64,000 bases of DNA from contig JAKPFN010000089.1 in the NCBI GenBank assembly GCA_029551395.1, positions 6,045 through 70,044 on the forward strand, in the 5' to 3' direction. The stretch comes from Armatimonadota bacterium (GTDB lineage Bacteria; Armatimonadota; UBA5829; DTLH01). Made by a program: the position numbers and the translations under genes. The notes under the pieces are model-generated. The model did no database searches, was not told the origin of the DNA, and worked only from the letters and a program-made list of their open reading frames with translations. Shown here in pieces: positions 38,149-53,845 of the stretch (the first letter of the stretch is position 1; each line of letters begins with the position of its first letter).

Positions 38149-38216
38149 TTGTCCGTACTTCCCCGTATTGTCCATCCTGGCTGATTCTGCTATCCTGCCA
38201 GCGGAGGATTGAGCTT

Positions 38217-40295: not shown

Positions 40296-40395
40296 AAAAC
40301 TTGAGACAGCGTGACACCTGAGGTCATACAAGGCCGATGCGTTTTAGCCATATTTAAGCTAGGGAAAGAGTAATATGGCATAGTATTCCGGTGCA

Positions 40396-40644
40396 ATGTA
40401 CCGGGTAAAGGAGGCATTGGTGATGACCTTTCAGGATATGACAATCACAGCTAAGGTCAAAGCGGCGTTAGCGCAGGCCGAAGATGTGAGCGCTATGGAT
40501 ATAGATGTAAATGTTAAGAATGGTGTTGTTACGCTCAAGGGCAATGTCAGCCGTGATGCCCATGACCGGGCAATTCAGGTAGCCAGGGGTGTAGACGGTG
40601 TAGTATCCGTCGAGGACAATCTCAACATAACATCATCAGCTTAA
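40396..40644 (+). CDS. BON domain-containing protein
   Basis: 'ITAKVKAALAQAEDVSAMDIDVNVKNGVVTLKGNVSRDAHDRAIQVARGVDGVVSVEDNL' is a classical BON domain. About 75 aa from Met 'MTFQDM'. Confidence 0.8.
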   Translation: MYRVKEALVMTFQDMTITAKVKAALAQAEDVSAMDIDVNVKNGVVTLKGNVSRDAHDRAIQVARGVDGVVSVEDNLNITSSA

Positions 40645-40653
40645 CGTGATAGA

Positions 40654-40700
40654 CAGGCCGCCCGATTGCAGCACAATCTGGCGGCCTTAATTGTTTTCTC
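40654..40700 (+). terminator. Rho-independent terminator after the BON gene
   Basis: 'AGGCCGCC'...'GGCGGCCT' stem followed by 'TAATTGTTTTCTC'. Confidence 0.6.
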
Positions 40701-40749
40701 TAACTCTTAGATTGCCTGGGATGTGTATCCCAGGTGCAGGTTTGGCGGT

Positions 40750-40945
40750 TATTCATCCGCCTATCTCTCGGGAGGGATTTGCCGTCTCTCGGGAGGAATT
40801 TGCCGTCTCTCGGGAGGAATTTGCAATTCCTCCCGGACATATTGCTGAGGGATCTGTGATCCCGGATGATTAACAAAAATACCAAGGAACGGGATTGCAA
40901 ATCCCTCTTTTGCTCTTCCGGGCTAAATTGCAAATTTAGCCCGAG
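40750..40945. repeat. Left arm of a ~200-bp imperfect inverted repeat bounding the 41-47.8 kb operon
   Basis: 'CCTCCCGGACATATTGCTGAGGGATCTGTGATCCCGGATGATTAAC(A)AAAATACCAAGGAACGGGATTGCAAATCCCT...CCGGGCTAAATTGCAAATTTAGCCCGAG' is the reverse complement of 47849..~48000. Contains 3 tandem 'TCTCGGGAGG(G/A)ATTTGC' units and the palindromes 'GGGATTGCAAATCCC' and 'CCGGGCTAAATTGCAAATTTAGCCCGG'. Confidence 0.85.
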
Positions 40946-41018
40946 TGTGAGTCGGCGCCACCATTATCGATCTTAGTCAGCTAAATTTTTCGGTTTTTGT
41001 CCATGCGGGTAGAATCGA

Positions 41019-41047
41019 GTTGACATCTGCTGCCGATAATAATATAT
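41019..41047 (+). promoter_or_regulatory. Candidate sigma70-type promoter for the NuoE/NuoF-GltD operon (followed by a ~315 nt leader)
   Basis: 'TTGACA'-17 nt-'TATATT' ('ttgacatctgctgccgataataatatatt'). Confidence 0.4.
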
Positions 41048-41232
41048 TGAAAGTACTAAGGAGCCGTCTTGTGAGGCAGGTTGACCTGTTCAACCTTCTC
41101 ATAAGATGACAAAACTGACCAAGAAGGAATAGGCAAAGGCAGCCTATAGCCGAGTGGCTGGTTGTTCTTGCAGTGTTGCACGGGACATAAAACCAATATC
41201 TTGGACCAATACCGCCTGCAGTAATCTCAGCA

Positions 41233-42261
41233 ATGGGGCTGAGCCGGATGGCAGACTCAGGTCTTAGACCTCAAACAACCTGCAAAGACACCGCAAAGCA
41301 TTTGTTTTGCACCAACCAGCCATATTCGACATTCCTGGCAGCGCAGCAAGGAGTAGAAGAAATGGTCTTAAATGTAGAGCCTTCGTGCAAGACATGCACC
41401 TGCCACGAGGAAGTGGATTTATCGCATGTCGAGAAGATTCTGGCCAAATACAACAATGACCGAGCCGAATTACTCTCGATTCTTGAGGAGGTTCAGGCCG
41501 ATTATGGCTATCTCCCGCAGAATGCACTTCGAATGGTGGCTGAAAGAACAGGCTCCTCGATGGTCGACGTTTTCGGCGTCGCCACTTTCTACCGCGCATT
41601 CAACCTCAAACCCCGAGGCAAACACTGCATCTCTGTGTGCATGGGAACAGCCTGTCATGTTAAAGGTGCGCCGAATGTAGTAAAAGAGTTCGAGCGTCAG
41701 CTTGGAATCTCTGTTGGCGAAACTACCCCAGACAACGAATTTACGCTTGAAACAGTCAATTGCCTTGGAGCAAGCGCACTGGGGCCAATCGTAATGGTTG
41801 ACGGGCATTATTTCTCCCATGTCACTCCCGCAAAAGTAAAGTGGCTCCTGTCAATGGTTCGTGCAGGACTTGATAAGGTCGATGTAAAGACTGATAGCCG
41901 GATAATCCACCTGGATGTGCTGTGTCCTCACTGCAATCAAAGTCTGATGGATTCTGTGCATCCAATAGACGGCTGCCCATCCATCCATACGACCATAACC
42001 TTTAACGGGGTTAGCGGTCATGCAAGATTGTCATCTCTTTATGGAAGTTACTCCATTCAATCAGAGCCTGATGCACCTGTGGGAACTACAGTTGACTTTT
42101 TCTGCCCATCGTGCAATAAAAAACTTACGACGACATCCAGATGTCCCGAATGTGGTGAGTTGATGGCATTGATGAGAGTAAGTGGGGGCGGTGTAGTACA
42201 AATCTGCACGCAGCGTGGATGTAAAGGGCATATACTAGACCTGAGTGAAATCGATATCTAA
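41233..42261 (+). CDS. NuoE/HoxE/HydC-like thioredoxin-fold [2Fe-2S] subunit with a C-terminal zinc-ribbon-like extension
   Basis: 'LSILEEVQADYGYLPQNALRMVAERTGSSMVDVFGVATFYRAFNLKPRGKHCISVCMGTACHVKGA...VNCLGASALGPIVMVDG' is the NuoE-family 2Fe-2S module. The C-terminal ~130 aa carry CxxC pairs ('CPHCNQ', 'CPSCNK', 'CPECGE'). The likely true start is ATG ~41363, with RBS 'AAGGAG' and Met 'MVLNVEPS'. Confidence 0.75.
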   Translation: MGLSRMADSGLRPQTTCKDTAKHLFCTNQPYSTFLAAQQGVEEMVLNVEPSCKTCTCHEEVDLSHVEKILAKYNNDRAELLSILEEVQADYGYLPQNALRMVAERTGSSMVDVFGVATFYRAFNLKPRGKHCISVCMGTACHVKGAPNVVKEFERQLGISVGETTPDNEFTLETVNCLGASALGPIVMVDGHYFSHVTPAKVKWLLSMVRAGLDKVDVKTDSRIIHLDVLCPHCNQSLMDSVHPIDGCPSIHTTITFNGVSGHARLSSLYGSYSIQSEPDAPVGTTVDFFCPSCNKKLTTTSRCPECGELMALMRVSGGGVVQICTQRGCKGHILDLSEIDI

Positions 42262-42314
42262 CAGCCACGGTGAAATAGTCAAGCTTTATTGGGCATAAGA
42301 AGGAATGGATAAGA

Positions 42315-45300
42315 TTGATGGAAAGACTGACTTCCGTTGAGGAGTTTCGGACACTGCAGAGTCGCGTCATTGCAGCTTTAGACCCTACAGTTCCTACCAT
42401 AGTTATCCCGGCCGGCACTTGCGGACAGGCTAGCGGTGCGAGTGATCTGATCAGAGTCGCAAAACGTTATCTCTTGGAAAAACGTTTAACTGATAAGGTT
42501 CGCTTGCGCATCACTGGATGTCATGGGTTCTGCGAAATGGAACCTTCCGTGCTTATCGAACCGCAAAAAACATTCTACCCTCGGGTAAGCATGAGAGATG
42601 TCTCCCGGATCATAGATGCCGCTGTAGAGGGAAAGGTGATCGAAGAACTCCTTTTTGTAGATCCAACGACCGGGGAACGGATTCGCAAGCAAAGTGATAT
42701 CCCATTTTTCAAAAAACAGTTCCGTTTGTTGATGGAAAGAAATGAGCGGGTAGACCCAAGACGGATTTTGGACTATATAGAGTCTGGTGGATATACAGCG
42801 CTGGCAGAGGTACTTGCAGAACGTGATCCTGAATGGGTTGTGTCCGAGGTCAAAGCGTCTGGACTGAGAGGCCGCGGCGGAGCTGGATTTCCTACGGGGA
42901 TTAAATGGGAAATGCTGGCAAAGCAGCCGAGCGATAAAGGCAAATTCATCGTGTGTAATGCTGATGAAGGCGACCCAGGAGCCTACATGGACCGCAGTAT
43001 CCTCGAAGGCAACCCACACAGCATCATTGAAGGGATGATCATTGGAGCTTTTGCGACTGGTGCGACTGATGGGATCATATATGTGTGCTGCGAGTTTCCT
43101 CTGGCTATTAAACATATTGGTATGGCATTGGAACAGGCGTATGAACTCGGGCTGCTGGGTGAAAACATTTTAGGCGCCGGTTTCTCCTTTAATATGACTA
43201 TGGTTAAAGGCGCTGGGGCATTCGTCTGCGGCGAAGAAACCGCCATGATCCACTCTATCGAAGGTTATACCGGCGAGCCAAGGCAAAGACCTCCATTTCC
43301 CATCCAAAAAGGAATAAACGGCAAGCCTACTGCCATTAATAATGTCGAGACATGGGCCAATATCCCGATTATCATCAGGGATGGCGCAAAAGCTTATGCC
43401 AGTATCGGCACTCCAAACAATTCCGGTACAAAAATCTTTAGCTTGGTCGGCAAGGTCAAACACACCGGGCTTGTTGAGATGCCTATGGGTACCACAATCG
43501 GAGAGATTGTATATAACGTAGGCGGTGGAGCTGTTGGCAACAGCGAAATCAAGGCTGTGCAGACTGGCGGGCCTTCAGGTGGATGTATTCCAGCAAGCAG
43601 CTTCGATCTTCCTGTAGATTATGATACGCTGGCTAAGTTCGGTTCGATTATGGGGTCTGGCGGCATGATCGTCATGGATGAAGATACGTGTATGGTCGAT
43701 GTTGCCAAATACTTCATGAACTTCCTGAAGAATGAGTCCTGCGGCAAGTGCTTTACCTGCCGTAAAGGCACTCAGCGGATGTATGAACTGCTGGAAGATA
43801 TTACTCTGGGAGCAGGTACTCCTGAAAGTATAGCTCTTTTGGAAGAACTTGCGTATGTAGTCAAAGACACGACGATGTGCGGTCTAGGGCAGTCGGCATC
43901 GAATTCCGTTTTGAGTTCGCTTAGGCATTTCCGCAATGAATATGAACAGCATGTAGTTGAAGGAAAATGCCCCTCTTATGTATGCAAGGATTTGGTAGGG
44001 GTGCCTTGTCAGACTGCCTGTCCGGTAGGGACTGAAATCTGGCGGTATATTGCGCAGATAGAGCACAAAAATTATGTAGATGCGTATAAAACAATACGTG
44101 AGTCTAACCCATTTCCATCGGTATGTGCTCGAGTGTGCAATCATCCGTGTGAAGACAGATGCAAATCCGGCACAAGCGGCGGGCAGCCAATCAATATCAG
44201 GGCTTTGACGAGGTTCGTTACCGATAATGTCGACCCAGGCGTTTATAAACCGGTAATTGAGCCACAGTTTGGAGATAAACATCCTCAGGTTGCTGTTGTT
44301 GGCGGAGGGCCAGCCGGACTGACAGCCGCGCATTATCTTTCTTTGAAAGGCTGCAAGGTTACTATCTTCGAGCAGGAATCTGAGCTTGGAGGAATGCTTC
44401 TTTCCGTAATACCGGAATACAAGCTGCCAGGAGAGGTTCTAAAATCGGAGATTGCCTCTTTGCTTAACGATAACATCACGCTCAAATACGGCACAGTGCT
44501 TGGGCGAGACATCACTGTTGATGGCTTGTTGAAAGACAACTTCGATGCTGTGTTCCTGAGTTTCGGTGCTCATAATAGTTCTGGGCTGCAATCGGACATT
44601 AAGGATATTCAAGGCGTTTATCCATTGCTGGATTATGTTAAGTCGGTAAATCTGAGAGGCGAAAACCTTGCTATTGGTAAGGTTGGCATCATTGGAGGAA
44701 GCGTTTCTGCTATTGATGCTGCCCGGACAGCCATCAGGTCGGCTAAAGCTGAGAGCGTAACGGTCTTTTATCAAGGGACGCGCGAAGATATGCTGGCAGC
44801 GAAAGATGAAATCGATGCTGCCATCGAAGAAGGTGTCAGTATTGAAACTCTGGTGTCTGTTGAAGAGATCCTCTCTCAAGACGGCAAGTTGGCAGGGGCC
44901 AGGATAGTTAAAAGCAGACTTGGAGACTTCGATTCGGATGGCCGAAGAAGACTTAAGCCGATTGCAGGGAGTGAACAAAAGGTAGATTTGGACACTCTCA
45001 TCATAACCGCATCGGAATCTCCAGATGTGGAATGTTTGCTGAGTAATAGTCATCTAAGCATCGATCTCAATGCTGACGGGACTATAAAAGTGGATGTTGG
45101 AACACTTGCTGCCAGTATTCCCGGTGTCTTTGCTGGAGGTGATATAACCGGCCAGGTTAGCGTCATCGATGCAATCGCAGCAGGAAAAAGAGCTGCTGAG
45201 TCTATTAGCTGTTACCTGCAAGGTAAAGTATATAAACCATCAACTGGTATCCAACTGCCGCAGGTTTTTATAGAACCAAACAGATCTGAAGAAGATGCAA

Positions 45301-45467
45301 GCGGACAAAGCGCCCGGGTCAAGCTTCCAAAGATCGATGTCAGTGAGCGACGTGGAAACTTCAAGGAAGTCGAGATTTCGCTTACACCGGAAAACGCTCT
45401 AAAAGAAGCCGGAAGATGCCTGAGGTGTGATCTGGACTTCTTCAAGTGCAAAGAGTGCCAGGAGTAA
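42315..45467 (+). CDS. Fusion protein: NuoF-like NADH-binding FMN/[4Fe-4S] flavoprotein module + GltD/NfnB-like [4Fe-4S]x2 FAD/NAD(P)H oxidoreductase module
   Basis: N-terminal half: 'GLRGRGGAGFPTGIKWE' (NuoF NADH/FMN site), 'ESCGKCFTCRKGTQRM' (NuoF 4Fe-4S), SLBB-like region. C-terminal half: 'CPSYVCKDLVGVPCQTACPVGTEIWRY...VCARVCNHPCEDRCK' (GltD/DPD-type N-terminal Fe-S domain), 'VAVVGGGPAGLTAAHYL' (FAD), 'VGIIGGSVSAIDAARTA' (NAD(P)H), 'GVFAGGDI'. 1050 aa. The start is more likely ATG 42318. Confidence 0.8.
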   Translation: MMERLTSVEEFRTLQSRVIAALDPTVPTIVIPAGTCGQASGASDLIRVAKRYLLEKRLTDKVRLRITGCHGFCEMEPSVLIEPQKTFYPRVSMRDVSRIIDAAVEGKVIEELLFVDPTTGERIRKQSDIPFFKKQFRLLMERNERVDPRRILDYIESGGYTALAEVLAERDPEWVVSEVKASGLRGRGGAGFPTGIKWEMLAKQPSDKGKFIVCNADEGDPGAYMDRSILEGNPHSIIEGMIIGAFATGATDGIIYVCCEFPLAIKHIGMALEQAYELGLLGENILGAGFSFNMTMVKGAGAFVCGEETAMIHSIEGYTGEPRQRPPFPIQKGINGKPTAINNVETWANIPIIIRDGAKAYASIGTPNNSGTKIFSLVGKVKHTGLVEMPMGTTIGEIVYNVGGGAVGNSEIKAVQTGGPSGGCIPASSFDLPVDYDTLAKFGSIMGSGGMIVMDEDTCMVDVAKYFMNFLKNESCGKCFTCRKGTQRMYELLEDITLGAGTPESIALLEELAYVVKDTTMCGLGQSASNSVLSSLRHFRNEYEQHVVEGKCPSYVCKDLVGVPCQTACPVGTEIWRYIAQIEHKNYVDAYKTIRESNPFPSVCARVCNHPCEDRCKSGTSGGQPINIRALTRFVTDNVDPGVYKPVIEPQFGDKHPQVAVVGGGPAGLTAAHYLSLKGCKVTIFEQESELGGMLLSVIPEYKLPGEVLKSEIASLLNDNITLKYGTVLGRDITVDGLLKDNFDAVFLSFGAHNSSGLQSDIKDIQGVYPLLDYVKSVNLRGENLAIGKVGIIGGSVSAIDAARTAIRSAKAESVTVFYQGTREDMLAAKDEIDAAIEEGVSIETLVSVEEILSQDGKLAGARIVKSRLGDFDSDGRRRLKPIAGSEQKVDLDTLIITASESPDVECLLSNSHLSIDLNADGTIKVDVGTLAASIPGVFAGGDITGQVSVIDAIAAGKRAAESISCYLQGKVYKPSTGIQLPQVFIEPNRSEEDASGQSARVKLPKIDVSERRGNFKEVEISLTPENALKEAGRCLRCDLDFFKCKECQE

Positions 45468-46153
45468 TGAGTATGGTCAACTTTGTTTTAAACGGTTTGC
45501 CTGTTAGTGTTGAGAAAGGATCGACAATACTGGAAGCCGCGCAGTTTTATGGTTTTCCTATTCCAACGTTATGTCACATGGAAGGACTTTCGCCGTACGG
45601 TGCGTGCCGTCTTTGCGTAGTAGAGATAGGCGAAGGACCAAGGGCCAAGCTTGTTACATCCTGTACTTATCCGGTTGAGGAAGGCCTGAAGGTGCGAACT
45701 GCCTCAGAGAGAGTGATTAAAGCACGGAGGATGGTCATAGAGCTTCTTTTGGCTTCGTGCCCGCAGTCTAAAACAATACAAGACCTTGCCTCCGCGCATG
45801 GAGTGAGACAGCAGCGCTTCAGGCAGGAATATGAAGACTGCATACTGTGCGGACGCTGCATACGGATGTGCAAAGAACAGATGATGGCAAAAGCTATAGG
45901 TTTCAGGGGCCGTGGCGAAGGAAGGTCCATCGGTACTCCCTTTGATATGAAGAGTGAACAGTGCAGGCAGTGTGGCGGCTGCATCTATGTATGCCCTGCC
46001 TGCCAGTTGAGATGCACTTACACCGAGCCGGAGAAAGCGGTGTGCGGTGGATGCGCGAATCTGACACCTCCTTGTGTCGAGAAAGATTCGTTTGATGATA
46101 TGATGTGTTATATGAACCCATGTGTAGCTTGTGAAATCAAGAAGGACCTGTAA
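45446..46153 (+). CDS. Ferredoxin subunit: 2Fe-2S (NuoG/HydA N-terminal type) + two [4Fe-4S] motifs
   Basis: 'VNFVLNGLPVSVEKGSTILEAAQFYGFPIPTLCH...GACRLCVVEI' (Fer2_4-like 2Fe-2S), 'CILCGRCIRMC' and 'CRQCGGCIYVCPAC' (4Fe-4S). The start is probably the internal Met 'MSMVNF' overlapping the upstream stop. Confidence 0.75.
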   Translation: MQRVPGVMSMVNFVLNGLPVSVEKGSTILEAAQFYGFPIPTLCHMEGLSPYGACRLCVVEIGEGPRAKLVTSCTYPVEEGLKVRTASERVIKARRMVIELLLASCPQSKTIQDLASAHGVRQQRFRQEYEDCILCGRCIRMCKEQMMAKAIGFRGRGEGRSIGTPFDMKSEQCRQCGGCIYVCPACQLRCTYTEPEKAVCGGCANLTPPCVEKDSFDDMMCYMNPCVACEIKKDL

Positions 46154-47756
46154 GGAGTCAAATGATATGGCGACAGCTTTCTCGAGGGTGAATGCTTCAG
46201 CAGCGACCCTTACCAAGAATCGAACTGAAGGATCAGTATCTTCCATCTCAGGTATGTGCGTGACCTGCGTAGATGGCTGCATCGGTATGTGCGAGATTGG
46301 AAAGTCCGCATACAGGGGCCATGAGGTTATTTATCCGCAGCCGTTTGGTGTTATTACGACTGCTGCTGAAAAGACCTACCCTGTTGACTACTCGCATTTT
46401 AACATAATGGGCACCGCAGTCGGGGCTGTTGGTATTGAGGCCGATAGTGACAAGGCTATATTCCCGAACGTTGACCTTTCGGTCCGATTCGGTCATGACG
46501 GCGGCATTAAGTTCAAACTGCCAATGATTATCCCTGGAATTGGCTCAACGAATATCGCCAAGAATAACTGGGAAGGATTAGCGATCGGTTCGGCGCTTGC
46601 AGGAACAGGTCTGACTATCGGTGAGAATGTTGTAGGTATGGATCCGCAGTCCGTAATCAAAAACGGACGTGTGGTTGATACCGTAGACCTGAAGCGCAGG
46701 GTCAAACTCTTCAAAGACTACCAGCGGGATGGCTGGGGAGAGATAGTTGTTCAGGCTAATGTAGAGGATACAAGGCTTGGAGGCCAGGAATACGCTATAC
46801 AGGAGCTCGGCGTTAGAGTTGTTGAGATGAAATGGGGCCAGGGCGCAAAGGACATCGGCGGCGAGGTCAAAATAAACGACCTGAAGAAGGCCCAACTGCT
46901 TTACGAGCGCGGTTATGTAGTCATACCGAATCCGACTGACCCGAATGTGATTAAAGCATTCGAGCAAGGCGCTTTCAAGGAGTTCGAGCGGCACTCGAGA
47001 GTCGGAATGATCTCTGAAGAGAGCTTTGCAAAGAGGGTGGAGGAACTGCGTAAGGCTGGTGCGAAGTATATCTTCCTGAAGACCGGTGCTTACAGACCTG
47101 CAGACCTTGCCAGAGCTATTGCATGGGCATCCAAATATAAGCTTGACCTGCTGACAGTTGATGGCGCAGGCGGTGGAACCGGTATGAGTCCGTGGAGGAT
47201 GATGAACGAGTGGGGAGTCCCGCCGGTTGAGCTTCATTCATTGCTTTATCAGTTTGCCAAGCGGCTTGCGGACAAGGGGAGGTATCTCCCGGCTTTTGCT
47301 GTTGCAGGTGGATTCACCTTCGAAGACCAGATATTCAAAGGTCTGGCAATGGGCGCTCCATTCGTGAAGCTGGTTGGAATGGCCCGAGGTCCTATTGCCT
47401 CTGCAATGGTAGGAAAGACCATCGGCAGAAGTATGGATGACGGTCAGCTTCCGGTGTATGTGGAGCGATTCGGCACGACCAGGGATGAGATTTTCGTCAC
47501 GGCAGCACATCTCAGGCAGGAACTTGGAGATGATGAGTTCGAAAAGCTGCCTACTGGTGCTCTTGGGCTTTACACCTATTATGAAAGGCTTGCCCAGGGA
47601 CTCCGCCAGTTGATGTGTGGAAGCCGGAAGTTCGCACTGGAGCACATCAGCCGAAACGATATTGCTGCTCTCACCCCGGAGGCATCAAAGGTCAGTGGTA
47701 TCCAGTACATAATGCACGTTGACGAGGACGAGGTAGACCAAATCCTCGACGCGTAG
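46131..47756 (+). CDS. Glutamate synthase large-subunit FMN-binding central domain ('GltB domain 2', PF01645-like) as a stand-alone subunit
   Basis: 541 aa. N-terminal Cys cluster 'CVTCVDGCIGMCE'. TIM-barrel FMN region 'KFKLPMIIPGIGSTN...GENVVGMDPQ', 'LLTVDGAGGGTGMSPWRMMNEWGVP', 'FAVAGGFTFEDQIFKGLAMGAPFVKLVGMARG'. No glutamine amidotransferase domain in the cluster. Confidence 0.7.
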   Translation: MKSRRTCKESNDMATAFSRVNASAATLTKNRTEGSVSSISGMCVTCVDGCIGMCEIGKSAYRGHEVIYPQPFGVITTAAEKTYPVDYSHFNIMGTAVGAVGIEADSDKAIFPNVDLSVRFGHDGGIKFKLPMIIPGIGSTNIAKNNWEGLAIGSALAGTGLTIGENVVGMDPQSVIKNGRVVDTVDLKRRVKLFKDYQRDGWGEIVVQANVEDTRLGGQEYAIQELGVRVVEMKWGQGAKDIGGEVKINDLKKAQLLYERGYVVIPNPTDPNVIKAFEQGAFKEFERHSRVGMISEESFAKRVEELRKAGAKYIFLKTGAYRPADLARAIAWASKYKLDLLTVDGAGGGTGMSPWRMMNEWGVPPVELHSLLYQFAKRLADKGRYLPAFAVAGGFTFEDQIFKGLAMGAPFVKLVGMARGPIASAMVGKTIGRSMDDGQLPVYVERFGTTRDEIFVTAAHLRQELGDDEFEKLPTGALGLYTYYERLAQGLRQLMCGSRKFALEHISRNDIAALTPEASKVSGIQYIMHVDEDEVDQILDA

Positions 47757-47783
47757 TGCGATTCGTAGGGGTAAATAAAGAAG

Positions 47784-47816
47784 GGAGGCAGTTCAAAAAG
47801 GATTGCCTCCCTTTTA
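47784..47816 (+). terminator. Rho-independent terminator of the four-gene operon
   Basis: 'GGGAGGCAG'-TTCAAAAAGGAT-'TGCCTCCC' followed by 'TTTTAATTA', ~30 nt after the stop. Confidence 0.7.
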
Positions 47817-47848
47817 ATTATCAATGTGCAGTAATTTGAAGAATAACC

Positions 47849-48060
47849 TCGGGCTAAATTTGCAAATTTAGCCCGGAATAGTGGATTAGGGATTTGCAAT
47901 CCCGTTCCTTGGTATTTTAGTTAATCATCCGGGATCACAGATCCCTCAGCAATATGTCCGGGAGGGATTGCAAATCCCTCCCGAGAGATGAATCCCTCCC
48001 GAGAGTGTCCCTCCCGAGATAAGGTTCGTCTGGGAGGCTAGGAATCCCCTCACGAGATAG
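47849..48060. repeat. Right arm of the ~200-bp inverted repeat (reverse complement of 40750..40945)
   Basis: 'CTCGGGCTAAATTTGCAAATTTAGCCCGG...GGGATTTGCAATCCCGTTCCTTGGTATTTTAGTTAATCATCCGGGATCACAGATCCCTCAGCAATATGTCCGGGAGG' plus degenerate 'CCCTCCCGAGAG' tandem units. Confidence 0.85.
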
Positions 48061-48099
48061 GAGTGAGGATTCATTCCGAGTGAGTAGAGAGTATTCTGT

Positions 48100-48390
48100 C
48101 TACCACTGTTCCGGCAGCATCATCAGTATAAACAATCCGACCAAACCACCTACCAGCCCCAATATTCCTCCCAACACGCCATCGTAACCTTTACTTCGCG
48201 CATAGTAAATGCAACCTCGAATAAAGATAATATCTACAGCAATCAGTAGTGCAACCACAATGGGTATTAGTGTATCGACATCGATTATCTCGCTTAGAAA
48301 AGCAAAGAGGATTAACACCCCAAGCCACATTAGAAGCGCCAGTTTAATGTTCGAGTTTGCGGTTTTTTTGTCTTCGTTCATGGAAGTCAC
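48100..48390 (-). CDS. Small hypothetical membrane protein (2 TM)
   Basis: 96 aa: 'LALLMWLGVLILFAFLSEII' and 'LGGILGLVGGLVGLFILMMLP'. Confidence 0.4.
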   Translation of the reverse strand: MTSMNEDKKTANSNIKLALLMWLGVLILFAFLSEIIDVDTLIPIVVALLIAVDIIFIRGCIYYARSKGYDGVLGGILGLVGGLVGLFILMMLPEQW

Positions 48391-48568
48391 CTCGCGAGGT
48401 ACTGTATCACAATGCTTGCCTGTAGTTTGGATTATTTTAGAATAATGCTAAATTAATGTCTACGTTTTCTTCTCCAAATGCTGAGGGTAACACATTACGG
48501 TGCGATTCCTGTTTTGGAATAGTTGTGTAGTGCACAACAATGTCAATTTGACCGGGAGGGATGAATAA

Positions 48569-48961
48569 TTGGAGAAGAAAACTAGCTACCTGATTATTGG
48601 AATGGCAGCTGGTGCAGCAGTTGGAGCCGGTACAGCAATGTTATTAACACCAATGAGTGGTAAAGAGGCAAGGGAAAAAGCCAGACAAAAAGCCCAGGGA
48701 GCTTATAGCTCTGCCAGGCAGCAGGTCTCGTCTGCAACTCAGATGATTGGCCGAAAAGGCGGCTCTATGAGAGCAGTCGATTTGAATAAGGCCGGAAAAG
48801 AGGAATTGATGCAGATAGAGGGCATTGGACCGGATATGGCTGAAAGTATCATTGCTTACCGCAGTCAGCATGGCGGGTTCGGATCGCTGGATGAACTGGA
48901 GAATGCTGTTGGCGCAAGTGTCGTATCGACTTTTAACCTCAAAGGCAAGTTCCATATATAA
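48569..48961 (+). CDS. ComEA-like helix-hairpin-helix DNA-binding protein with a YtxH-like N-terminus
   Basis: 'LNKAGKEELMQIEGIGPDMAESIIAYRSQHGGFGSLDELENAVG' is a tandem HhH (ComEA-type). The N-terminal 'LIIGMAAGAAVGAGTAMLLTP' is an amphipathic/TM segment. Confidence 0.65.
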   Translation: MEKKTSYLIIGMAAGAAVGAGTAMLLTPMSGKEAREKARQKAQGAYSSARQQVSSATQMIGRKGGSMRAVDLNKAGKEELMQIEGIGPDMAESIIAYRSQHGGFGSLDELENAVGASVVSTFNLKGKFHI

Positions 48962-49117
48962 AATCTCCGTATGCTAATGCCCGAGTTGCACAACTCGGGC
49001 TATTTTAGTTTGCCTTCTGGAATATATTATCAGTTAAAGCATTTTATTACTCATTATTCGTTACTTTCCCTTGGCTTTCCCCTCAGGTTATGCGGTATAA
49101 TACAGGCAGGAGAATTA

Positions 49118-50302
49118 ATGTTTATGCGTAGAATCCAACCACTATTCGTTTTCTTACTACTCTTTGTATTCACTGCAATCGCCTGTGCTGCTCCCAAGAA
49201 TGTAATCCTGTTTATCGGTGATGGGATGGGTCATGCTCATATTGCTGCTGCAAGGATAAGCACACTCGGCCAGGGAGGCCGGCTTACAATAGAGAAAATG
49301 CCGGTTACAGGGATGCATACAACACATTCAGCAAATGCTCTGGTGACAGATTCTGCTGCCGGAGCTACAGCGCTTGCTTGTGGAGTCAAGACAAACAACT
49401 ATACAGTAAGCAAATCTCCTGACGGCAGACGCGTAAGATCGATACTTGAAGCTTCAAGAACCATTGGAAAAGCTACAGGCGTTGTGACTACGACTTCAGT
49501 TACTGATGCCACACCCGCGGCCTTTACCTCTCATGTCGATGAAAGAGGAATGCAGCCGGAAATAGCCGGTCAGCAACTCGATGTAAATATCGATGTATTG
49601 ATGGGCGGCGGTAGAGCCTATTTTCTGCCTGAAGGCGACGATGGCTACCGTTCAGATTCAAGAAATCTGCTCTCTGAAGCAGCTGCAAAAGGTTATATCG
49701 TTGTTACAACAGCCGAAGAACTGAACAAAGTAAATAGTGGGAGAGTTTTAGGCTTATTTGCAATGGAGAAGCTGACTACACAGTCCCCTGAGCCTTCGCT
49801 TTCCGAGATGACCAAAAAAGCAATCCAGATACTCTCTCAGGACACGGACGGATTCTTTCTGATGGTTGAAGGTGGGCAAATAGACTCATACGCACACCGC
49901 AATGATCTTGATGGAATGGTCCGGCAGCTTATCGAGTTCGATAAAGCCGTTGCTGAAGGATTGAGCTTTGCACAGCAGAATGGCGATACGCTGGTTGTTG
50001 TTACTGCAGACCATGAAACAGGCGGGCTGACGCTGCTTTCTGACGATGAAGGTAATTTAGGACCATCCTGGTCCACAGGCGGACACAGCGGAATTATGGT
50101 TCCGGTTTTTGCATTCGGCCCAGAGTCCCAGCGCTTTACCGGGCTTATGGATAATACTGATATTAGTAAAAAGATTGGCGCTGTCTGGGGAGTAAAAGTT
50201 GGGTTGTTTGATGTGTCCGATGATGATAAAACAGCCGACTCGGTCCGTATAAAACACGAATACTCCAAGTCGGCTGCAGTAGCTGCTTCATCTACACGCT
50301 AA
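49118..50302 (+). CDS. Alkaline phosphatase (PhoA family), secreted
   Basis: Start chosen at 'MFMRRIQPLFVFLLLFVFTAIACA' (signal peptide) with RBS 'AGGAGAA'. The track ORF starts further upstream at 48971. Motifs: 'ILFIGDGMGH', 'DSAAGATALACGVKT', 'VVTADHETGG', 'GGHSG'. Confidence 0.85.
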   Translation: MFMRRIQPLFVFLLLFVFTAIACAAPKNVILFIGDGMGHAHIAAARISTLGQGGRLTIEKMPVTGMHTTHSANALVTDSAAGATALACGVKTNNYTVSKSPDGRRVRSILEASRTIGKATGVVTTTSVTDATPAAFTSHVDERGMQPEIAGQQLDVNIDVLMGGGRAYFLPEGDDGYRSDSRNLLSEAAAKGYIVVTTAEELNKVNSGRVLGLFAMEKLTTQSPEPSLSEMTKKAIQILSQDTDGFFLMVEGGQIDSYAHRNDLDGMVRQLIEFDKAVAEGLSFAQQNGDTLVVVTADHETGGLTLLSDDEGNLGPSWSTGGHSGIMVPVFAFGPESQRFTGLMDNTDISKKIGAVWGVKVGLFDVSDDDKTADSVRIKHEYSKSAAVAASSTR

Positions 50303-50304
50303 AT

Positions 50305-53300
50305 CTAGTTCTCAGCAGATGTTTCTGCCGTTTCTTTTTTTTCGACGGTATTCTGCTTTGGAGCAGTCTTTCGTCTGGATGTATAACGTCGCCGTGGTTT
50401 TTTGCCGTTTCCGTTGTCTGAGTCAGGTGCTATCTGTTGAACAGGTTCAACAACTGGCTCAGCAACGGGTTCAGACACAACGACCGGCTCAGGTGTTTCT
50501 GCCGGTTCTTTGGATGTCTTTGACGCACGCCGTCCGCGCCGCTTCTGTTTGACTTCCGGTTCCGCAGTAGAAACTGTATCTTCAACAACTACCGGTGCAG
50601 GTTCTACGGCTGCGGTAGCAGTCTCTTCGACAACTGGCGATGCCTTTCTGCTGCGCCGCTTCGGCTTCTTCTCTTCCATTACCGGCTCTTCTGCTTTTAC
50701 AGGTGGTTCTTCGGCAGGAGTCGGCTCAGCAGCAATTGCCTGTTCCTGTGCTGTTTCCACTACATCGGGAGCCTGCTTCACACTACGCCTTTGATGCCGT
50801 CTGGAAGTCCGCTTCCGCTCAGCCGATGGTTCATCCGACACGGCCTCCGCTTTTGGTGAAGCTGCAATCTCAGCCTCTACTTCTTCAGGTTTTACAGGCT
50901 GCTCCTCAGGAATATTCGCACCTTTGGACTTTGTCCGATGCCTGCGCTGCTTTTTAGACGATGATGCTGCAGATGTCTCAGTCTCATTGGCTGCAGTTGT
51001 TGGAGAAGCTTCAATTGTCTCTACTGCTTCACCTTCAGCCGGTTGAGATTTCTGCGCCTCCTGAGTTTCAGCAGCTTCAGTGTGAGAGCGCTTGGACCGT
51101 CTGCCGCGCTTCCGCTTCTTCTCTGCCTGTTGAGCCAACTTTTCCAGTTCTTCCTTTGCAGCACGTTCTGCGAACTCATGCTCCAGTTCAGCCAGGATTT
51201 TTATCATCTGCTCGACAGTTTCGATGTCGCCGCGTCCAGGCGGTATCGGAAGCGGTTCAGGTTGTGTTGATTCCTTATTAGCCTTTCTGCGCTGCGGTTT
51301 ACATGCAGCACCCAAAATGAGCTGTATCGTATGCTTGCCTCCACCAAGTTCGATGTTCGAGTCATAACGGTCTCTGCCATCGACAAGGACTCTGCAGGGT
51401 GCTGGCCCTTTTGGCGGAATGAACTCAGCAATGACACCGGACGGAACTGAGATAAGCAGTGTAAGCCCTCGCCTGACAGTCTGCCATTCTACCGAAACAG
51501 GGCCTGAAGCAGTCTGAACGGTGCCTTTGGCCCATTCAAGCCCTGATGGATGCGGTTCTATCCGCACTCTTTTCGGTTCACCTGTCGGTTTTATGCCCAG
51601 CACGTGTGCAGGAAGCTGATACGCAGGCCCGCTGGACGCTGCATAGCATCGGCAGTCCCCATTTTCAGGATTAAAATGCTCCCAGAACGTCGTAGCGCCC
51701 TCGGAGAGCATTTTACCCCATTTTTCTTTGATTACATCTACTGCTTGTGCAGCAAATCCACTTCTGGACAATGCTTCTACAAGGTAGGATGTAAAATATG
51801 GTGTCGATATCGGCGGCAGACCTTTCTCATCCAGCATCTGCCTGAAGATAGACGACTTCTGGTAGTGGTCTGCGACATCAAACAGTGCAGCAAGTATGTT
51901 TGTCTGCCTTGAATAATGCTCCTGAAGCTTGCCATCTACTCTTGCATCCGCGAAAAGCCCACGGTCACGTGACCAGAAGAACTTGGATATGGCCATTCTC
52001 AGCGCAGAAGCCATTCCGGCCCATTCTTCAGCCTCATTTCTCTTGTGCAGCGCTTCAGCAATCCAGCAGGCTGCACGCAGCGCGCCTAAATACAGGCAGT
52101 TCAGCGCTGCGACTTCACCTCGGCGGTCAATCTCAGCCCAGTCGATAAACAAATCACCTCGGACACGAGACAACAGCCCGTCTGAGTCCGTAAACTGACC
52201 AATCCACTTCAGCCATTTGACAACATTCGGGTAAAGTTCTGCCAGAAGACTCAGGTCTTCGCTCTGCGCATAATATTCCCACAGGCTCATGACCCATAGA
52301 GCAGCAAAGTCAGGGAAAAGCTCTCTTGTGGCGCTGGGGAACATTGCAAAGATAGCGCCGTCACCTTCCTGCGATGCTGCTATATGCCTGAGTCCCTGTT
52401 TCATGAGTTTTGTGTCGCCGAACGCATAGTAAGCGGCACGTGAAGCCACCGAAGCATTGTCCCACCATTGGGTGCGTTCTCTCCAAGGGCTGTCGGTGTA
52501 AGTGTCCTGCATAGACAACCGGGCGGTTTCAGCAGCAGTCCGCCAGATACGGTTCAGTTCTTCATCGCTGCATTCAAAGTTACCCTGCCACTCGACCGGA
52601 TATGATGTCTCATGAACGCGAACATGGCTTATCGAAACTGGTTTCGGACAATTTCTAAGGTCTAATTGAACATAGCGGAAAGCTCGCTGTTCGAAGCTGG
52701 TCCATGTCTGTTTGCCATTACGCAGGATTAATCGGTCGGTGTAGCGTATATCTCCGCGGTTTGGTATTACCTTGCCATCCTGAAGCACTTCGCTGTAGCC
52801 GATGTCCACTATTCCGCCGTTAGACCGGGTGAACTCTAGTTCGATGCTTCCAAATACCTCGCGTCCAAAGTCCAGCACTAGGGATATACCTTCGGGATTA
52901 GGCACAGTTATAGCTGCAGCATCATCATTAGCGCTAATCAGCCTCTCAGGCTTAAACACTCGTCCTTTTTTGAGTGGCTTGAGGTCTTCTTCAGCCATGA
53001 ATGCTGGCATATCTGGAGGTTGAATACCTTCCGGCAGCGGCGGGCAGTTATAGATGGAATACACAGAGTCAGGGTAGACAAGTTGTTCGCGAAGATGCGG
53101 AATTTCACGGGGAACAAGCTTGTAGAAAGGCCGCATCTGGGATTTGCCGAGCACTATAGCCTGCGGCCACTTGGCGTCTTTGAACTTCACCTTGGTCCAA
53201 TTCTGCGGCTCCAAATTTGCATCATAAACTTCTTGCCAACCAAGGCGGCGGCTCATACGGGTTCCGGCTGCTGTCCATTCTGATGCAGGCAGAACACGCC

Positions 53301-53724: not shown

Positions 53725-53845
53725 TGAACCTCATAATCTCGCTCGGCCCAGTTATGATTATGTCACAAATCCCTGCAGAACGCAAGAGAGCTTACGCGTT
53801 TTTCAACGGTTTTCCAGCCTAATCTGCCTTGAGCTATAAGGAATT

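Follow-up and report, generated by a model that had tools for sequence, protein, structure and literature searches.

A glutamate synthase-like FMN protein is encoded at the end of a conserved operon with NuoE-, NuoF- and HoxU-like subunits

In glutamate synthase (GltS), the usual electron-donor partner of GltB is a GltD-type domain. Split glutamate synthases with separate domain proteins occur in archaea and Thermotoga, and their genes are normally adjacent. A GltD-like module carrying NADPH, FAD and two [4Fe-4S] clusters also occurs in DPD and PreTA, where it is wired through further Fe-S clusters to a substrate-reducing FMN TIM barrel. In the Bfu (HydABC-type) enzymes, an H-x5-C-x4-C site (B2) marks the bifurcating BfuB/HydB subunit and is missing from non-bifurcating homologs, and the third-substrate modules described for these enzymes are hydrogenases, Fdh, Nfn, F420, Wor, Bam, Codh, Por, Mbh, Nuo and Rub, with no GltS-like FMN subunit among them (Schut et al. 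2022, PMC9304861). FGltS of methanogens, a putative F420-dependent enzyme proposed to be glutamine-dependent, is uncharacterised (Susanti and Mukhopadhyay 2012, PMC3448663). Here we compare these systems with a locus on an Armatimonadota contig; our literature search found neither a description of the complex it would encode nor biochemistry on any member of the family.

The window, a 64-kb stretch of DNA, contains a gene that a preliminary description had presented as a stand-alone GltB FMN-domain subunit. We found instead that this gene ends a four-gene operon on one strand, with intergenic gaps of 56, 5 and 13 nt:

41362 to 42261, forward strand: nuoE/hoxE/hydC-like gene for a thioredoxin-like [2Fe-2S] subunit, BfuC-like (PF01257, E 1e-49; NuoE/HoxE NCBIfam models)
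42318 to 45467, forward strand: nuoF/hydB-like gene for an NADH-FMN-[4Fe-4S] subunit with a fused GltD/NfnB-like C-terminal module (PF01512, PF10589, PF14691, PF07992)
45473 to 46153, forward strand: hoxU/NuoG-N-terminal-like gene for an FeS subunit, short BfuA-like (PF13510, PF12838)
46167 to 47756, forward strand: gene for a GltS-like FMN TIM-barrel protein (529 aa, PF01645 family, N-terminal Cys4 motif)

The upstream partners are obligate in synteny. HoxU-, NuoF- and NuoE-like genes precede the GltS-like gene in 82 of 82 related loci, as far as the sequence reaches, and the HoxU-like gene stands directly upstream in 81 of them; the loci represent at least 15 phylum-level lineages. The preliminary description also missed a GltD domain, the customary partner of GltB, which lies two genes upstream, fused to NuoF. 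Sequence identity across these loci climbs toward the catalytic end of the operon, from 47-62% for NuoE through 62-76% for NuoF and 68-86% for HoxU to 77-87% for the GltS-like protein, a level suggesting a central, mechanistically constrained enzyme, which is what such conservation normally marks. The operon is conserved and its last gene is not an orphan GltB fragment; the GltS-like protein very probably works as part of a four-subunit complex.

For the NuoE-like gene, the open-reading-frame rule gives a start at 41233 and homolog lengths (282-292 aa) suggest the ATG at 41362. The encoded subunit has a C-terminal extension of about 120 aa with eight cysteines (C188, C191, C248, C251, C261, C264, C282 and C287), each 100% conserved. 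Two sites in the first two genes are informative:

41773 to 41775, forward strand: AGC codon (Ser138) of the NuoE-like subunit, where the fourth cysteine ligand of the [2Fe-2S] cluster is expected
43950 to 43985, forward strand: H-x5-C-x4-C (HVVEGKCPSYVC), aa 545-556 of the NuoF-like subunit, the His/Cys site marking BfuB/HydB

The Ser138 position is Cys in 58 of 59 homologs and Ser in the window copy alone, which leaves the BfuC-like [2Fe-2S] cluster (C1) of the window with three cysteines and this serine. Of the 69 full-length NuoF proteins scored, which comprise 68 homologs and the window's own, 68 carry the H-x5-C-x4-C site. In NCBIfam the NuoF-like protein matched nuoF_fam (E 7e-140) and gltD-type models, and tblastn with E. 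coli GltD aligned 428 aa of the fusion at 32% identity (E 3e-54). The GltD module (2x[4Fe-4S], FAD, NAD(P)H) forms its C-terminal half, at 43986-45467, and the B1 [4Fe-4S] ligands C475, C478, C481 and C521 are 100% conserved. At the N-terminus of the NuoF-like protein, the thioredoxin-like domain resembles a 2Fe-2S ferredoxin model (E 4e-9) and has about three cysteines, of which C68 and C72 are fixed and the third shifts among positions 31, 35 and 36. The HoxU-like subunit, whose best NCBIfam models are the FeFe_hydrog_A6 N-terminus, HoxU and NuoG, combines a [2Fe-2S] site with two CxxCxxCxxxC motifs and has a conserved C-terminal tail that contains eight cysteines; all 21 of its cysteines are conserved in at least 87% of 69 sequences.

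This arrangement resembles the Bfu enzymes in its NuoE-/NuoF-like core with H-x5-C-x4-C and in a short BfuA-like FeS subunit that would feed a separate catalytic subunit, the 'Type 2/3' logic (PMC9304861). It departs from them in that the B3/B4 ferredoxin-side domain of the window's NuoF is swapped for the GltD module and that the N-terminal [2Fe-2S] (B5) ligands appear incomplete. The fusion with GltD occurs in 49 of 68 operons, whereas NuoF in the other 19 (28%), the 'short' homologs, ends in the canonical Bfu C-terminal 2x[4Fe-4S] domain and retains B3/B4.

We next consider the GltS-like gene itself. The open reading frame reported earlier (46131-47756, forward strand, 541 aa, opening at GTG) and its translation were correct, but its start was placed 36 nt too early. 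More than 100 homologs are 526-531 aa long and begin at the residue corresponding to M13 of the 541-aa frame, and a GGAG lies 9 nt upstream of the ATG at 46167, immediately past the HoxU-like stop at 46153. On the strength of these homolog N-termini and the ribosome-binding site we place the start at 46167, giving 529 aa. Proteins about 80% identical occur in Planctomycetota, Zixibacteria, Ignavibacteria, Acidobacteriota, Syntrophales, Spirochaetes and many candidate phyla; a word-indexed homolog search gave at least 8000 passing candidates, every one of those it scored, and 1067 of 1.84 billion cluster representatives matched the family at E<=1e-3. Judged from these sequence comparisons, the family is compact and set apart from GltB. 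It currently bears only a generic name.

Several lines of evidence tie the family to the glutamate synthase FMN domain, in agreement with the GltB central-domain TIM-barrel motifs noted at the outset. Against Pfam the protein matched PF01645 alone, weakly (E 3e-13; aa 281-402; a score of 50 bits where the cut-off is 20.4, spanning only positions 185-303 of the 369 in the profile), and all 61 family members compared matched PF01645 and no other family. It had no match among NCBIfam models, and none among PDB sequences (GltS included), even with the family profile. BLASTP against E. coli GltB gave 28% identity over 132 aa. Profile alignment by hhalign to the E. coli GltB FMN domain (760-1240) was collinear over aa 46-512 with a probability of 72% (E 3.5e-5), compared with 24% for GuaB and 0.9% for LldD, and the shared motifs are RLG/RFG, K-x3-QGAK-x-GG, DGxGGTGxSP, GG-x6-D-x2-K-x4-GA and the C-terminal helix. 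An AF2 model folds as a TIM barrel (pLDDT 83). Taken together, these comparisons show a resemblance to GltB that is real but remote, and on sequence grounds the protein descends from the GltS synthase domain. Three motifs are central to the comparison:

46257 to 46292, forward strand: C31-x2-C34-x3-C38-x3-C42 (529-aa numbering), presumed [4Fe-4S] site, conserved across clades
46830 to 46865, forward strand: K222-W-G-Q-G-A-K228-D-I-G-G-E233, paired by hhalign with the GltS motif IK-x-AQGAKPGEGGQ
47160 to 47192, forward strand: D332-G-A-G-G-G-T-G-M-S-P342, GltS-type FMN loop, pairing with GYDGGTGASP of GltB

The N-terminal cysteine cluster recognised earlier is the first of these, and it is invariant or nearly so both in the main clade and in clades of just 30-50% identity. 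The [3Fe-4S] ligands of GltS, C-x5-C-x4-C after strand 8, align with a stretch of the protein that has no Cys (VGKTIGRSMDDGQLPVYV), and the N-terminal Cys4 site is presumed to stand in for this internal loop. K222 and K228 do not vary among 61 sequences, and Q225-G-A-K228 is invariant or nearly so. We take Gln969, Lys972, Arg992 and Glu903 to be the GltS synthase-site residues for 2-oxoglutarate binding and catalysis, Arg992 presumably binding the distal carboxylate of 2-oxoglutarate. Q225 and K228 pair with the GltS QGAK motif and are conserved; at the Arg992 position the protein has Leu245, followed three residues later by Arg248, which is clade-specific, and in view of the Leu 2-oxoglutarate may not be the substrate. 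Compared with GltB/Fd-GltS (PF01645; Azospirillum brasilense, PDB 6S6S/2VDC), the protein shares the sole Pfam match, a collinear alignment of about 460 residues, the motifs, a predicted Fe-S cluster feeding FMN and a GltD-type module that would supply NAD(P)H electrons. It differs in the altered cluster site and distal-carboxylate position, in the missing GEGGE insertion (hhalign alignment) and in a donor that would comprise a NuoEF/HoxU module and not just GltD.

The larger difference lies in what accompanies the FMN domain. We searched six frames of the 64-kb window with E. coli GltB segments (tblastn and phmmer) and the 10-kb flanks of the 82 related loci by tblastn, and neither search detected an amidotransferase, central or GXGXG domain. 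The earlier observation that neither the protein nor its neighbours carry the Ntn amidotransferase or GXGXG domain thus extends to the whole window and to 82 loci. Lacking these domains, the protein would hence have no ammonia tunnel, and glutamine-independent chemistry is the natural inference.

Variation among relatives points to a protein that accepts electrons from different sources. One relative at 34% identity (P0250) is fused to FrhB (F420) and a ferredoxin domain, recalling FGltS in its combination of a GltS-type subunit with a non-canonical electron input, known there from gene context; the present complex differs from FGltS in its NAD(P)H modules and in having no amidotransferase nearby. 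Firmicutes relatives at 30-45% identity are monocistronic, and the Firmicutes sister clades, which include Clostridium kluyveri, Moorella and Peptoclostridium acidaminophilum, have no partner genes beside them. Such interchangeable electron-input modules are expected of a terminal reductase.

Glutamate dehydrogenase (GDH) is the only recurring metabolic neighbour of the operon. Nine of the 82 main-clade loci (11%) have GDH genes within 10 kb, against a rough chance expectation of about 0.5 per 82 loci (some 16 flanking genes per locus, 1-2 GDH genes per genome of about 3500 genes). These genes sit inside the operon in three loci (L017, L020 and L024) and directly downstream in two (L021 and L051), and they belong to two different subtypes. 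In both full-length loci of the F420-fused relative, two GDH-type genes lie directly upstream on the same strand. The 64-kb window itself has no such adjacency. This repeated association ties the family to the glutamate/2-oxoglutarate node and lends indirect support, from other lineages, to the earlier idea of amination with free ammonia or reduction of another imino or oxo acid. It could also mean shared regulation rather than a shared substrate, and GDH beside an ammonia-dependent glutamate-forming enzyme looks redundant.

The operon is also bracketed by inverted repeats of about 180 nt, and further elements flank it:

40766 to 40945, no strand: left arm of a long imperfect inverted repeat (repeat search and blastn)
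41020 to 41048, forward strand: TTGACA-17-TATATT, the top sigma-70-like promoter candidate ahead of the operon, 11/12 (consensus scan)
47783 to 47819, forward strand: hairpin GGGAGGCA...TGCCTCCC followed by TTTTAATT (sequence read directly; 13-nt loop)
47848 to 48019, no strand: right arm of the inverted repeat (repeat search and blastn)

The core pair of the repeat, 40806-40929 and 47865-47988, spans 124 nt at 93%, extended by blastn to 181 nt at 87%. In the left arm, a 21-nt unit (TCTCTCGGGAGGRATTTGCCG) occurs three times in tandem and palindromes surround a TTGCAA core; the motif was counted five times against 0.25 expected by chance. The hairpin begins 27 nt past the stop codon of the GltS-like gene and is likely the operon terminator, although its 13-nt loop kept it off the list of the pattern scan. 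The promoter-like site is a pattern match only, such sites occurring in the region at their chance expectation.

Gene order, domain content, conserved ligand motifs, homology and co-occurrence are direct observations; on them we build a scheme whose cofactor occupancy, electron path, substrate, direction and bifurcation are all inferred. NADH would lose its electrons to the FMN of the NuoF-like subunit, which is held by its NuoE-like partner; NADPH would have an entry of its own at the FAD of the fused GltD module, a module found in the window and about 72% of homologous operons. The HoxU-like subunit would relay the electrons, by way of its [2Fe-2S] and [4Fe-4S] clusters, to a [4Fe-4S] cluster on the N-terminal CxxCx3Cx3C of the GltS-like protein, from which they would reach the FMN of that protein, in the TIM barrel of synthase-domain descent. 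The path from a GltD-like module through Fe-S clusters to an FMN TIM barrel would match the layout of DPD/PreTA (discussed in PMC8097209). At this FMN, the imine of 2-oxoglutarate, or of a close 2-oxo acid, with free ammonia would most likely be reduced to the amino acid, or the amino acid would be oxidised in the opposite direction. The Bfu signature on the NuoF subunit makes coupling to ferredoxin by bifurcation or confurcation possible.

We give about an even chance to the proposal that the GltS-like protein is the substrate-converting subunit of a four-subunit soluble Fe-S flavoprotein complex of the HydABC/Bfu (Stn-like) kind, with glutamine-independent GltS-type chemistry. That its substrate lies at the glutamate/2-oxoglutarate/ammonia node is plausible at somewhat less than even confidence, and ferredoxin-coupled bifurcation is suggested only tentatively. 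Points against the proposal are Leu245 at the distal-carboxylate position, the missing GEGGE insertion, the small share of loci with adjacent GDH genes and the incomplete Bfu features of the window. The fullest version, which we regard as speculative and rather unlikely as a whole, is 'Glt-Bfu', an unrecognised class of Bfu-type enzyme that would act as a glutamine-independent bifurcating or confurcating glutamate oxidoreductase. Its third substrate would be the 2-oxoglutarate plus NH4+/glutamate couple, and it would tie the pools of NADH, NADPH and ferredoxin directly to the central carbon-nitrogen node in anaerobes of more than 15 phyla, with ferredoxin-only forms in Clostridium and Moorella and F420-linked forms in archaea-like lineages.

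The alternative that survives best, although we consider it unlikely, keeps the same complex and has the FMN subunit act on a different 2-oxo, 2-hydroxy or imino acid, for example by reducing 2-oxoglutarate to 2-hydroxyglutarate, acting on a cyclic imine, or converting pyruvate/lactate as a Bfu analogue of the confurcating lactate dehydrogenase. It would accommodate the Leu at the distal-carboxylate position and the nearest structures, which are L-lactate oxidase/dehydrogenase, mandelate oxidase, flavocytochrome b2 and glycolate oxidase. It also fits the occurrence of the Firmicutes sister clade in amino-acid fermenters and the sigma-54 two-component regulators encoded ahead of the operon at 49 of the 82 loci, such regulators being typical of substrate-inducible catabolic operons. 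Against this, PF01070 is matched by 0 of 61 members, the hhalign probability for LldD is negligible, the His-Arg pair of L-lactate dehydrogenase (SNHGGRQ) gives way to DGAGGGTG where the FMN loop stands, the conserved K-x3-QGAK and GGTGxSP are GltS-specific, and GDH remains the sole metabolic gene that recurs nearby. An alpha-hydroxy-acid oxidase/dehydrogenase (PF01070) was accordingly set aside as an identity for the protein itself, only the overall fold being close; type-2 IPP isomerase and IMPDH/GMPR likewise give no profile match, and like PF01070 enzymes these families have no Fe-S motif.

We find it improbable that the complex is a Stn/Nfn-type NADH-NADPH-ferredoxin transhydrogenase in which the GltS-like subunit is accessory or regulatory with no substrate of its own. 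NuoE, NuoF, a HoxU-type FeS subunit and GltD do make up the full StnABC/NfnABC inventory (PMC10482914, PMC9304861), but the fourth, GltS-like FMN subunit is always present, is the most conserved and keeps near-invariant active-site motifs (K222, Q225-G-A-K228), whereas GltD is missing in over a quarter of operons. The same protein stands alone in Firmicutes and is FrhB-fused elsewhere. Relative to StnABC/NfnABC (PMC7483475, PMC10482914), GltD is moreover joined to the NuoF-like subunit and not to the FeS subunit StnC/BfuA. Quite improbable, too, is a split glutamate synthase of the archaeal, glutamine-dependent type to which the protein would contribute one piece. Its PF01645 membership, the GltD module in the same operon and the F420-linked GltS predicted from FrhB adjacency (PMC3448663) would suit this reading, yet GATase_2, central and GXGXG sequences are missing from the window and from all 82 loci within 10 kb, the [3Fe-4S] loop is gone, the family is separate from GltB with PDB GltS unmatched even by profile, and a quarter of the operons have no GltD. 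An autonomous enzyme in an incidental NuoEF/HoxU neighbourhood, for which the monocistronic Firmicutes relatives could be cited, is scarcely credible beside invariant synteny over 82 loci in many phyla, the 13-nt spacing in the window and a HoxU-like partner co-conserved at about 80% identity.

Collectively, these findings bear on how such genes are annotated: the name gltB is unsuitable for the GltS-like gene, as are the complex I names nuoE and nuoF for the genes upstream. At present the former gene risks being counted as GOGAT and its NuoEF partners as parts of complex I or a hydrogenase. Should the proposed four-subunit complex indeed connect NAD(P)H and ferredoxin with the node of glutamate, 2-oxoglutarate and ammonia, the Bfu family would gain a new module. 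The complex would also offer anaerobes a route through their carbon-nitrogen junction that needs no glutamine, and would change the bookkeeping of 'glutamate synthase' genes in metagenome models of sediment and digester communities.

The preliminary description presented the GltS-like FMN TIM-barrel protein (the target) as a stand-alone subunit of 541 aa encoded at 46131-47756. The ORF at 46131..47756 (+), counted from a GTG, and its N-terminal cysteine motif are indeed present in the translation, but the ATG at 46167 is almost certainly the true start, giving 529 aa, since both homolog alignment and an upstream GGAG favour it: nearly all of the best 120 homologs are 526-531 aa long, and their alignments begin at the counterpart of M13, and the GGAG lies 9 nt 5' of this ATG, just past the TAA of the preceding gene. 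Nor is the target stand-alone, as it ends a tight four-gene operon whose upstream gene order recurs in all related loci as far as their contigs reach:

41362-42261, + strand: NuoE/HoxE-type [2Fe-2S] protein with a Cys-rich C-terminal extension
42318-45467, + strand: 1049-aa NuoF/HydB-type NADH-FMN-[4Fe-4S] subunit fused to a GltD/NfnB-type NAD(P)H-FAD-2x[4Fe-4S] module
45473-46153, + strand: HoxU/NuoG-N-terminal-type protein carrying one [2Fe-2S] and two [4Fe-4S] motifs, plus a tail of eight cysteines
46167-47756, + strand: the target

All four genes, assigned from their domain matches, share one strand, with intergenic gaps of 56, 5 and 13 nt, and a hairpin followed by a T-run lies 27 nt 3' of the target stop codon. 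Assignment to respiratory complex I or a hydrogenase was rejected because further nuo or hydrogenase genes are absent from the operon. We also observed Cys-rich C-terminal extensions of a kind unusual for HoxU or NuoE, namely a conserved eight-cysteine tail (C-terminal 50 aa) past the two ferredoxin-type motifs of the HoxU-like subunit and a conserved eight-cysteine, zinc-ribbon-like extension (C-terminal 120 aa) of the NuoE-like subunit; these could house additional clusters or provide the surfaces on which the GltS-like subunit docks. Separately, Ser138 of the NuoE-like subunit (AGC, 41773-41775) replaces the fourth [2Fe-2S] ligand, which is Cys in 58/59 homologs, and could reflect a genuine ligand exchange with a shifted cluster potential, gene decay or an error in sequencing. 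The flanks (37387-40295 and 48569-55228) hold polysaccharide-degradation and miscellaneous genes that are functionally unrelated to the operon, encoding an SDR, a GH35/42 beta-galactosidase-like protein, a ComEA-like HhH protein, an alkaline phosphatase, a 1139-aa rhamnosidase-like GH and a 460-aa protein whose C-terminus weakly matches type II pseudopilins.

Across the 82 related loci (two long metagenomic contigs and 80 genome loci), the HoxU-like, NuoF-like and NuoE-like genes lay upstream of the target homolog in constant order in every case, as far as the contig reaches. The named lineages among these loci are Planctomycetota (including Phycisphaerae, Pirellulales and Candidatus Scalindua), Zixibacteria, Ignavibacteria, Melioribacteraceae, Bacteroidota, Acidobacteriota, Latescibacterota, Krumholzibacteriia, Eisenbacteria, Neomarinimicrobiota, Verrucomicrobiota, Riflebacteria, Coatesbacteria, Spirochaetales, Syntrophales, Smithella, Syntrophorhabdus and Pseudomonadota, and protein searches found further target homologs in KSB1, Calditrichota, WOR-3 and Armatimonadota, the last at 100% identity and hence probably from the source of the window. 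Identity to the window proteins climbs along the operon toward the target, from 47-62% (NuoE-like) and 43-53% (GltD module) through 62-76% (NuoF-like) and 68-86% (HoxU-like) to 77-87% for the target itself. Such a gradient points to very strong purifying selection acting on the catalytic pair; recent transfer by itself would not give rise to it.

Clustering all ORFs of the 82 loci identified recurrent neighbours. A sigma-54 NtrC/AtoC-type response regulator precedes the operon in 49/82 loci, a count that covers the regulator; a GAF/HisKA sensor kinase gene was noted before it in two loci, kinase and regulator together lying at 1542-4610 in L001 and at 2558-5639 in L002, and the upstream regulators in other genomes are generic AtoS/AtoC/NtrC-like proteins. 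Directly 5' of nuoE, 44/82 loci encode a small protein of ~90-120 aa (for example L001 4815-5174 and L002 6151-6438) consisting of two G-L-C-x2-C-x5-C-x(9-11)-C-E-E-Y repeats; it matches no Pfam or NCBIfam model and may serve the complex as a metal-binding carrier or an assembly factor not recognised before. Beside the target 3' end, about 10 loci carry a gene for a ~1000-aa protein with an unassigned N-terminal third, a PPDK_N domain (PEP-utilising ATP-grasp) and a C-terminal nucleotidyltransferase (L002 11714-13852, L005 6554-9802, L030 11728-14895), on the same strand as the target in most loci and on the opposite strand in L039 and L065; this protein may act as a covalent-modification regulator.

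Neither the small Cys protein nor the sigma-54 regulators that commonly lie upstream occur in the window, where the sigma-54 promoter consensus occurs 3 times against 5.1 expected and never upstream of the operon. With neither the kinase and regulator nor this consensus upstream, regulation of the operon must differ in the window genome. An imperfect inverted repeat was also seen to bracket the four genes (40766-40945 versus 48019-47848). Its core of 124 nt has 93% complementarity (~181 nt at 87% identity by blastn), and its arms include 21-nt tandem units (TCTCTCGGGAGGRATTTGCCG) and palindromes centred on TTGCAA. The two arms are the only occurrences of the repeat in the window, none of the 82 related loci has it, the element has no plasmid match, and an Rfam scan of 40300-48700 returned nothing. 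Together with the missing regulators and the glycoside-hydrolase surroundings, the repeat looks like a mark of cassette-type acquisition, its arms perhaps being the ends of a mobile cassette; alternatively, they may be shared hairpin terminators or operators.

Judged from its profile matches, the target is, only just, a member of the glutamate-synthase FMN-domain family. PF01645, the GltS FMN synthase domain, is its sole Pfam match (scoring 50 bits where 20.4 is required and spanning one third of the model) and likewise the only family matched by 61/61 diverse relatives, while NCBIfam models did not match it and searches of PDB sequences with the target and with a 61-sequence family profile found nothing, no solved GltS included. 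By BLASTP the target shares 28% identity with E. coli GltB, the large GltS subunit, across 132 residues. When phmmer was run exhaustively against 1.84 billion cluster representatives, only 1067 proteins reached E<=1e-3, so the family is compact and lies well apart from canonical GltB; most of the best 150 of these matches are fragments. Against the E. coli GltB FMN domain, the family profile gave a collinear alignment spanning residues 46-512 (E 3.5e-5, probability 72%), compared with probabilities of 24% for E. coli IMPDH and 0.9% for the L-lactate dehydrogenase LldD. Membership of the alpha-hydroxy-acid dehydrogenases was rejected, as the target has no PF01070 match and lacks the catalytic dyad, with DGAGGGTG in place of the catalytic SNHGGRQ of LldD. 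An AF2 model from 20 sequences ~83% identical reached a pLDDT of 45 and was not used; adding the 30-40% identical Firmicutes clade raised this to 83.

Closer inspection of the profile alignment paired the following segments, as well as the C-terminal helices of the two proteins.

Segments of the target (529-aa numbering) aligned with E. coli GltB
R203-L-G: RFG in GltB
K222-W-G-Q-G-A-K228-D-I-G-G-E: IKVAQGAKPGEGGQ in GltB
D332-GAGGGTGMSP: GYDGGTGASP in GltB
AGGFTFEDQIFKGLAMGA: DGGLKTGVDIIKAAILGA in GltB

The [3Fe-4S] loop of GltB (C-x5-C-x4-C) lies opposite a cysteine-free stretch in the target, whose N-terminal motif, C31-x2-C34-x3-C38-x3-C42, is invariant across the main clade, is retained in clades of only 30-50% identity and looks like a functional replacement for that loop. 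The GEGGE segment of GltS is deleted in the target, and Leu245 occupies the aligned position of GltS R992, which we take to bind the distal carboxylate of 2-oxoglutarate; these two differences would count against an exact GltS site.

Genomic context supplies a clue to the substrate. Glutamate dehydrogenase (GDH) genes, of two different subtypes, lie inside or beside the operon in 9/82 loci from different phyla (L015, L017, L020, L021, L024, L036, L039, L051 and L057): in L020 (Scalindua) and L024 they separate nuoE from the small Cys protein, in L017 they lie just 5' of the latter, and in L021 and L051 directly 3' of the target homolog. By our own rough expectation, chance would place ~0.5 GDH genes in such flanks per 82 loci, so the association is unlikely to be accidental. 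GDH-type genes recur beside a relative of the target, P0250, a fusion protein that also contains ferredoxin and FrhB-type F420-binding domains: two such genes lie immediately upstream on the same strand in both full-length loci of this relative (L091 4355-7585; L092 3826-6823), with a class-III aminotransferase at one of the two. The first of these loci was also seen to carry pylBCD-like genes. The fusion recalls the F420-dependent glutamate synthase predicted for methanogens from gene context (PMC3448663). That ferredoxin, F420 or NAD(P)H modules serve one catalytic unit is what would be expected of a terminal substrate reductase or oxidase. Collectively, GDH adjacency and the conserved lysine and glutamine of QGAK point to the glutamate/2-oxoglutarate/ammonia node. 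Given the departures from the GltS site, use of a different 2-oxo, 2-hydroxy or imino acid is an appreciable, though clearly lesser, possibility.

The NuoF part of the window operon carries an H-x5-C-x4-C site (HVVEGKCPSYVC), found in 68/69 full-length NuoF proteins scored, the window's own counted. In the HydABC-type electron-bifurcating (Bfu) family this site is reported to mark virtually all bifurcating BfuB subunits and not their non-bifurcating homologs (Schut et al., PMC9304861). Bfu membership of the window copy is not clean; GltD stands in its NuoF in place of the Bfu ferredoxin-side clusters, the N-terminal [2Fe-2S] domain of the NuoF-like subunit has only two fixed cysteines and a wandering third, and the cluster of the NuoE-like subunit shows the Ser138 substitution noted above. 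The GltD fusion occurs in 49/68 related loci with a full-length NuoF gene, and in the remaining 19/68 NuoF terminates, as canonical HydB does, with a 2x[4Fe-4S] ferredoxin domain. The operon also shares the domain inventory of the StnABC/NfnABC transhydrogenases (NuoE, NuoF, FeS domain and GltD) but places GltD on NuoF rather than on the FeS subunit and adds the target as an extra constant subunit. That the target is an accessory subunit of an Stn-like transhydrogenase, as the shared inventory might suggest, is improbable.

The claim that no amidotransferase or GXGXG partner accompanies the target held up across the window and the flanks of the related loci. We divided E. coli GltB into amidotransferase, central, FMN and GXGXG segments as queries for tblastn and phmmer against six frames of the 64-kb window; the sole match was a marginal one of the FMN segment to the target itself, the other three segments being absent, and none was found <=10 kb around the homolog in the 82 other loci. 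A role of the N-methylglutamate synthase MgsC type was rejected, as its required GATase-like and GXGXG-like partners are likewise absent from the window and these loci. A split, glutamine-dependent GltS would need its partners to lie at a distance, and we consider this slightly less probable again than an accessory role. With the same three genes upstream in every locus, a truly autonomous enzyme is very hard to credit.

In the proposed scheme, NADH would reduce the NuoF FMN and, in the window operon, NADPH the GltD FAD; the HoxU-like clusters would relay single electrons to a [4Fe-4S] cluster held by the target Cys4 motif, and from there to the barrel FMN. Once reduced, this FMN would pass a hydride to the imine that free ammonia forms with a 2-oxo acid, most probably 2-oxoglutarate. 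An ammonia tunnel would be needless because the GltS domains that build it are absent. The standard potential of the 2-oxoglutarate + NH4+/glutamate couple is close to -120 mV. Under standard conditions this is sufficiently positive for NADH to drive bifurcation to ferredoxin in the reductive direction, and it would also suffice for ferredoxin-assisted glutamate oxidation; at cellular concentrations the potential is far lower, about -280 mV by our own estimate.

All building blocks of this complex are already known. The third-substrate modules surveyed for Bfu enzymes comprise hydrogenases, formate dehydrogenase, Nfn, F420, Wor, Bam, CODH, POR, Mbh, Nuo and rubrerythrin, and the text and one supplement of that survey do not mention a GltS/GltB-like partner (PMC9304861). 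The literature searched held no description of the gene cluster, and the database name of the target family is the generic 'FMN-binding glutamate synthase family protein'. An arrangement in which a Bfu/Stn-type input module drives a GltS-derived [4Fe-4S]-FMN subunit, and likewise the breadth, extreme conservation and GDH link of the complex, thus appear to be undescribed in that literature. Relatives of the target with 30-45% identity are monocistronic in Clostridium kluyveri, Moorella/Neomoorella, Clostridium chromiireducens, Peptoclostridium acidaminophilum, Tissierella, Sedimentibacter and Gudongella, and their gene context in P. acidaminophilum, Gudongella, C. kluyveri and Moorella is variable and holds no substrate clue. 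A sister clade (P0130 and P0390-P0508; 546-547 aa) from Clostridium kluyveri, Moorella/Neomoorella, Desulfotomaculum and Syntrophomonadaceae is itself 73-79% conserved, and its genes are monocistronic in acetogens and C. kluyveri. These hosts are well studied, cultured and genetically tractable, and would offer the simplest route to the family's substrate.
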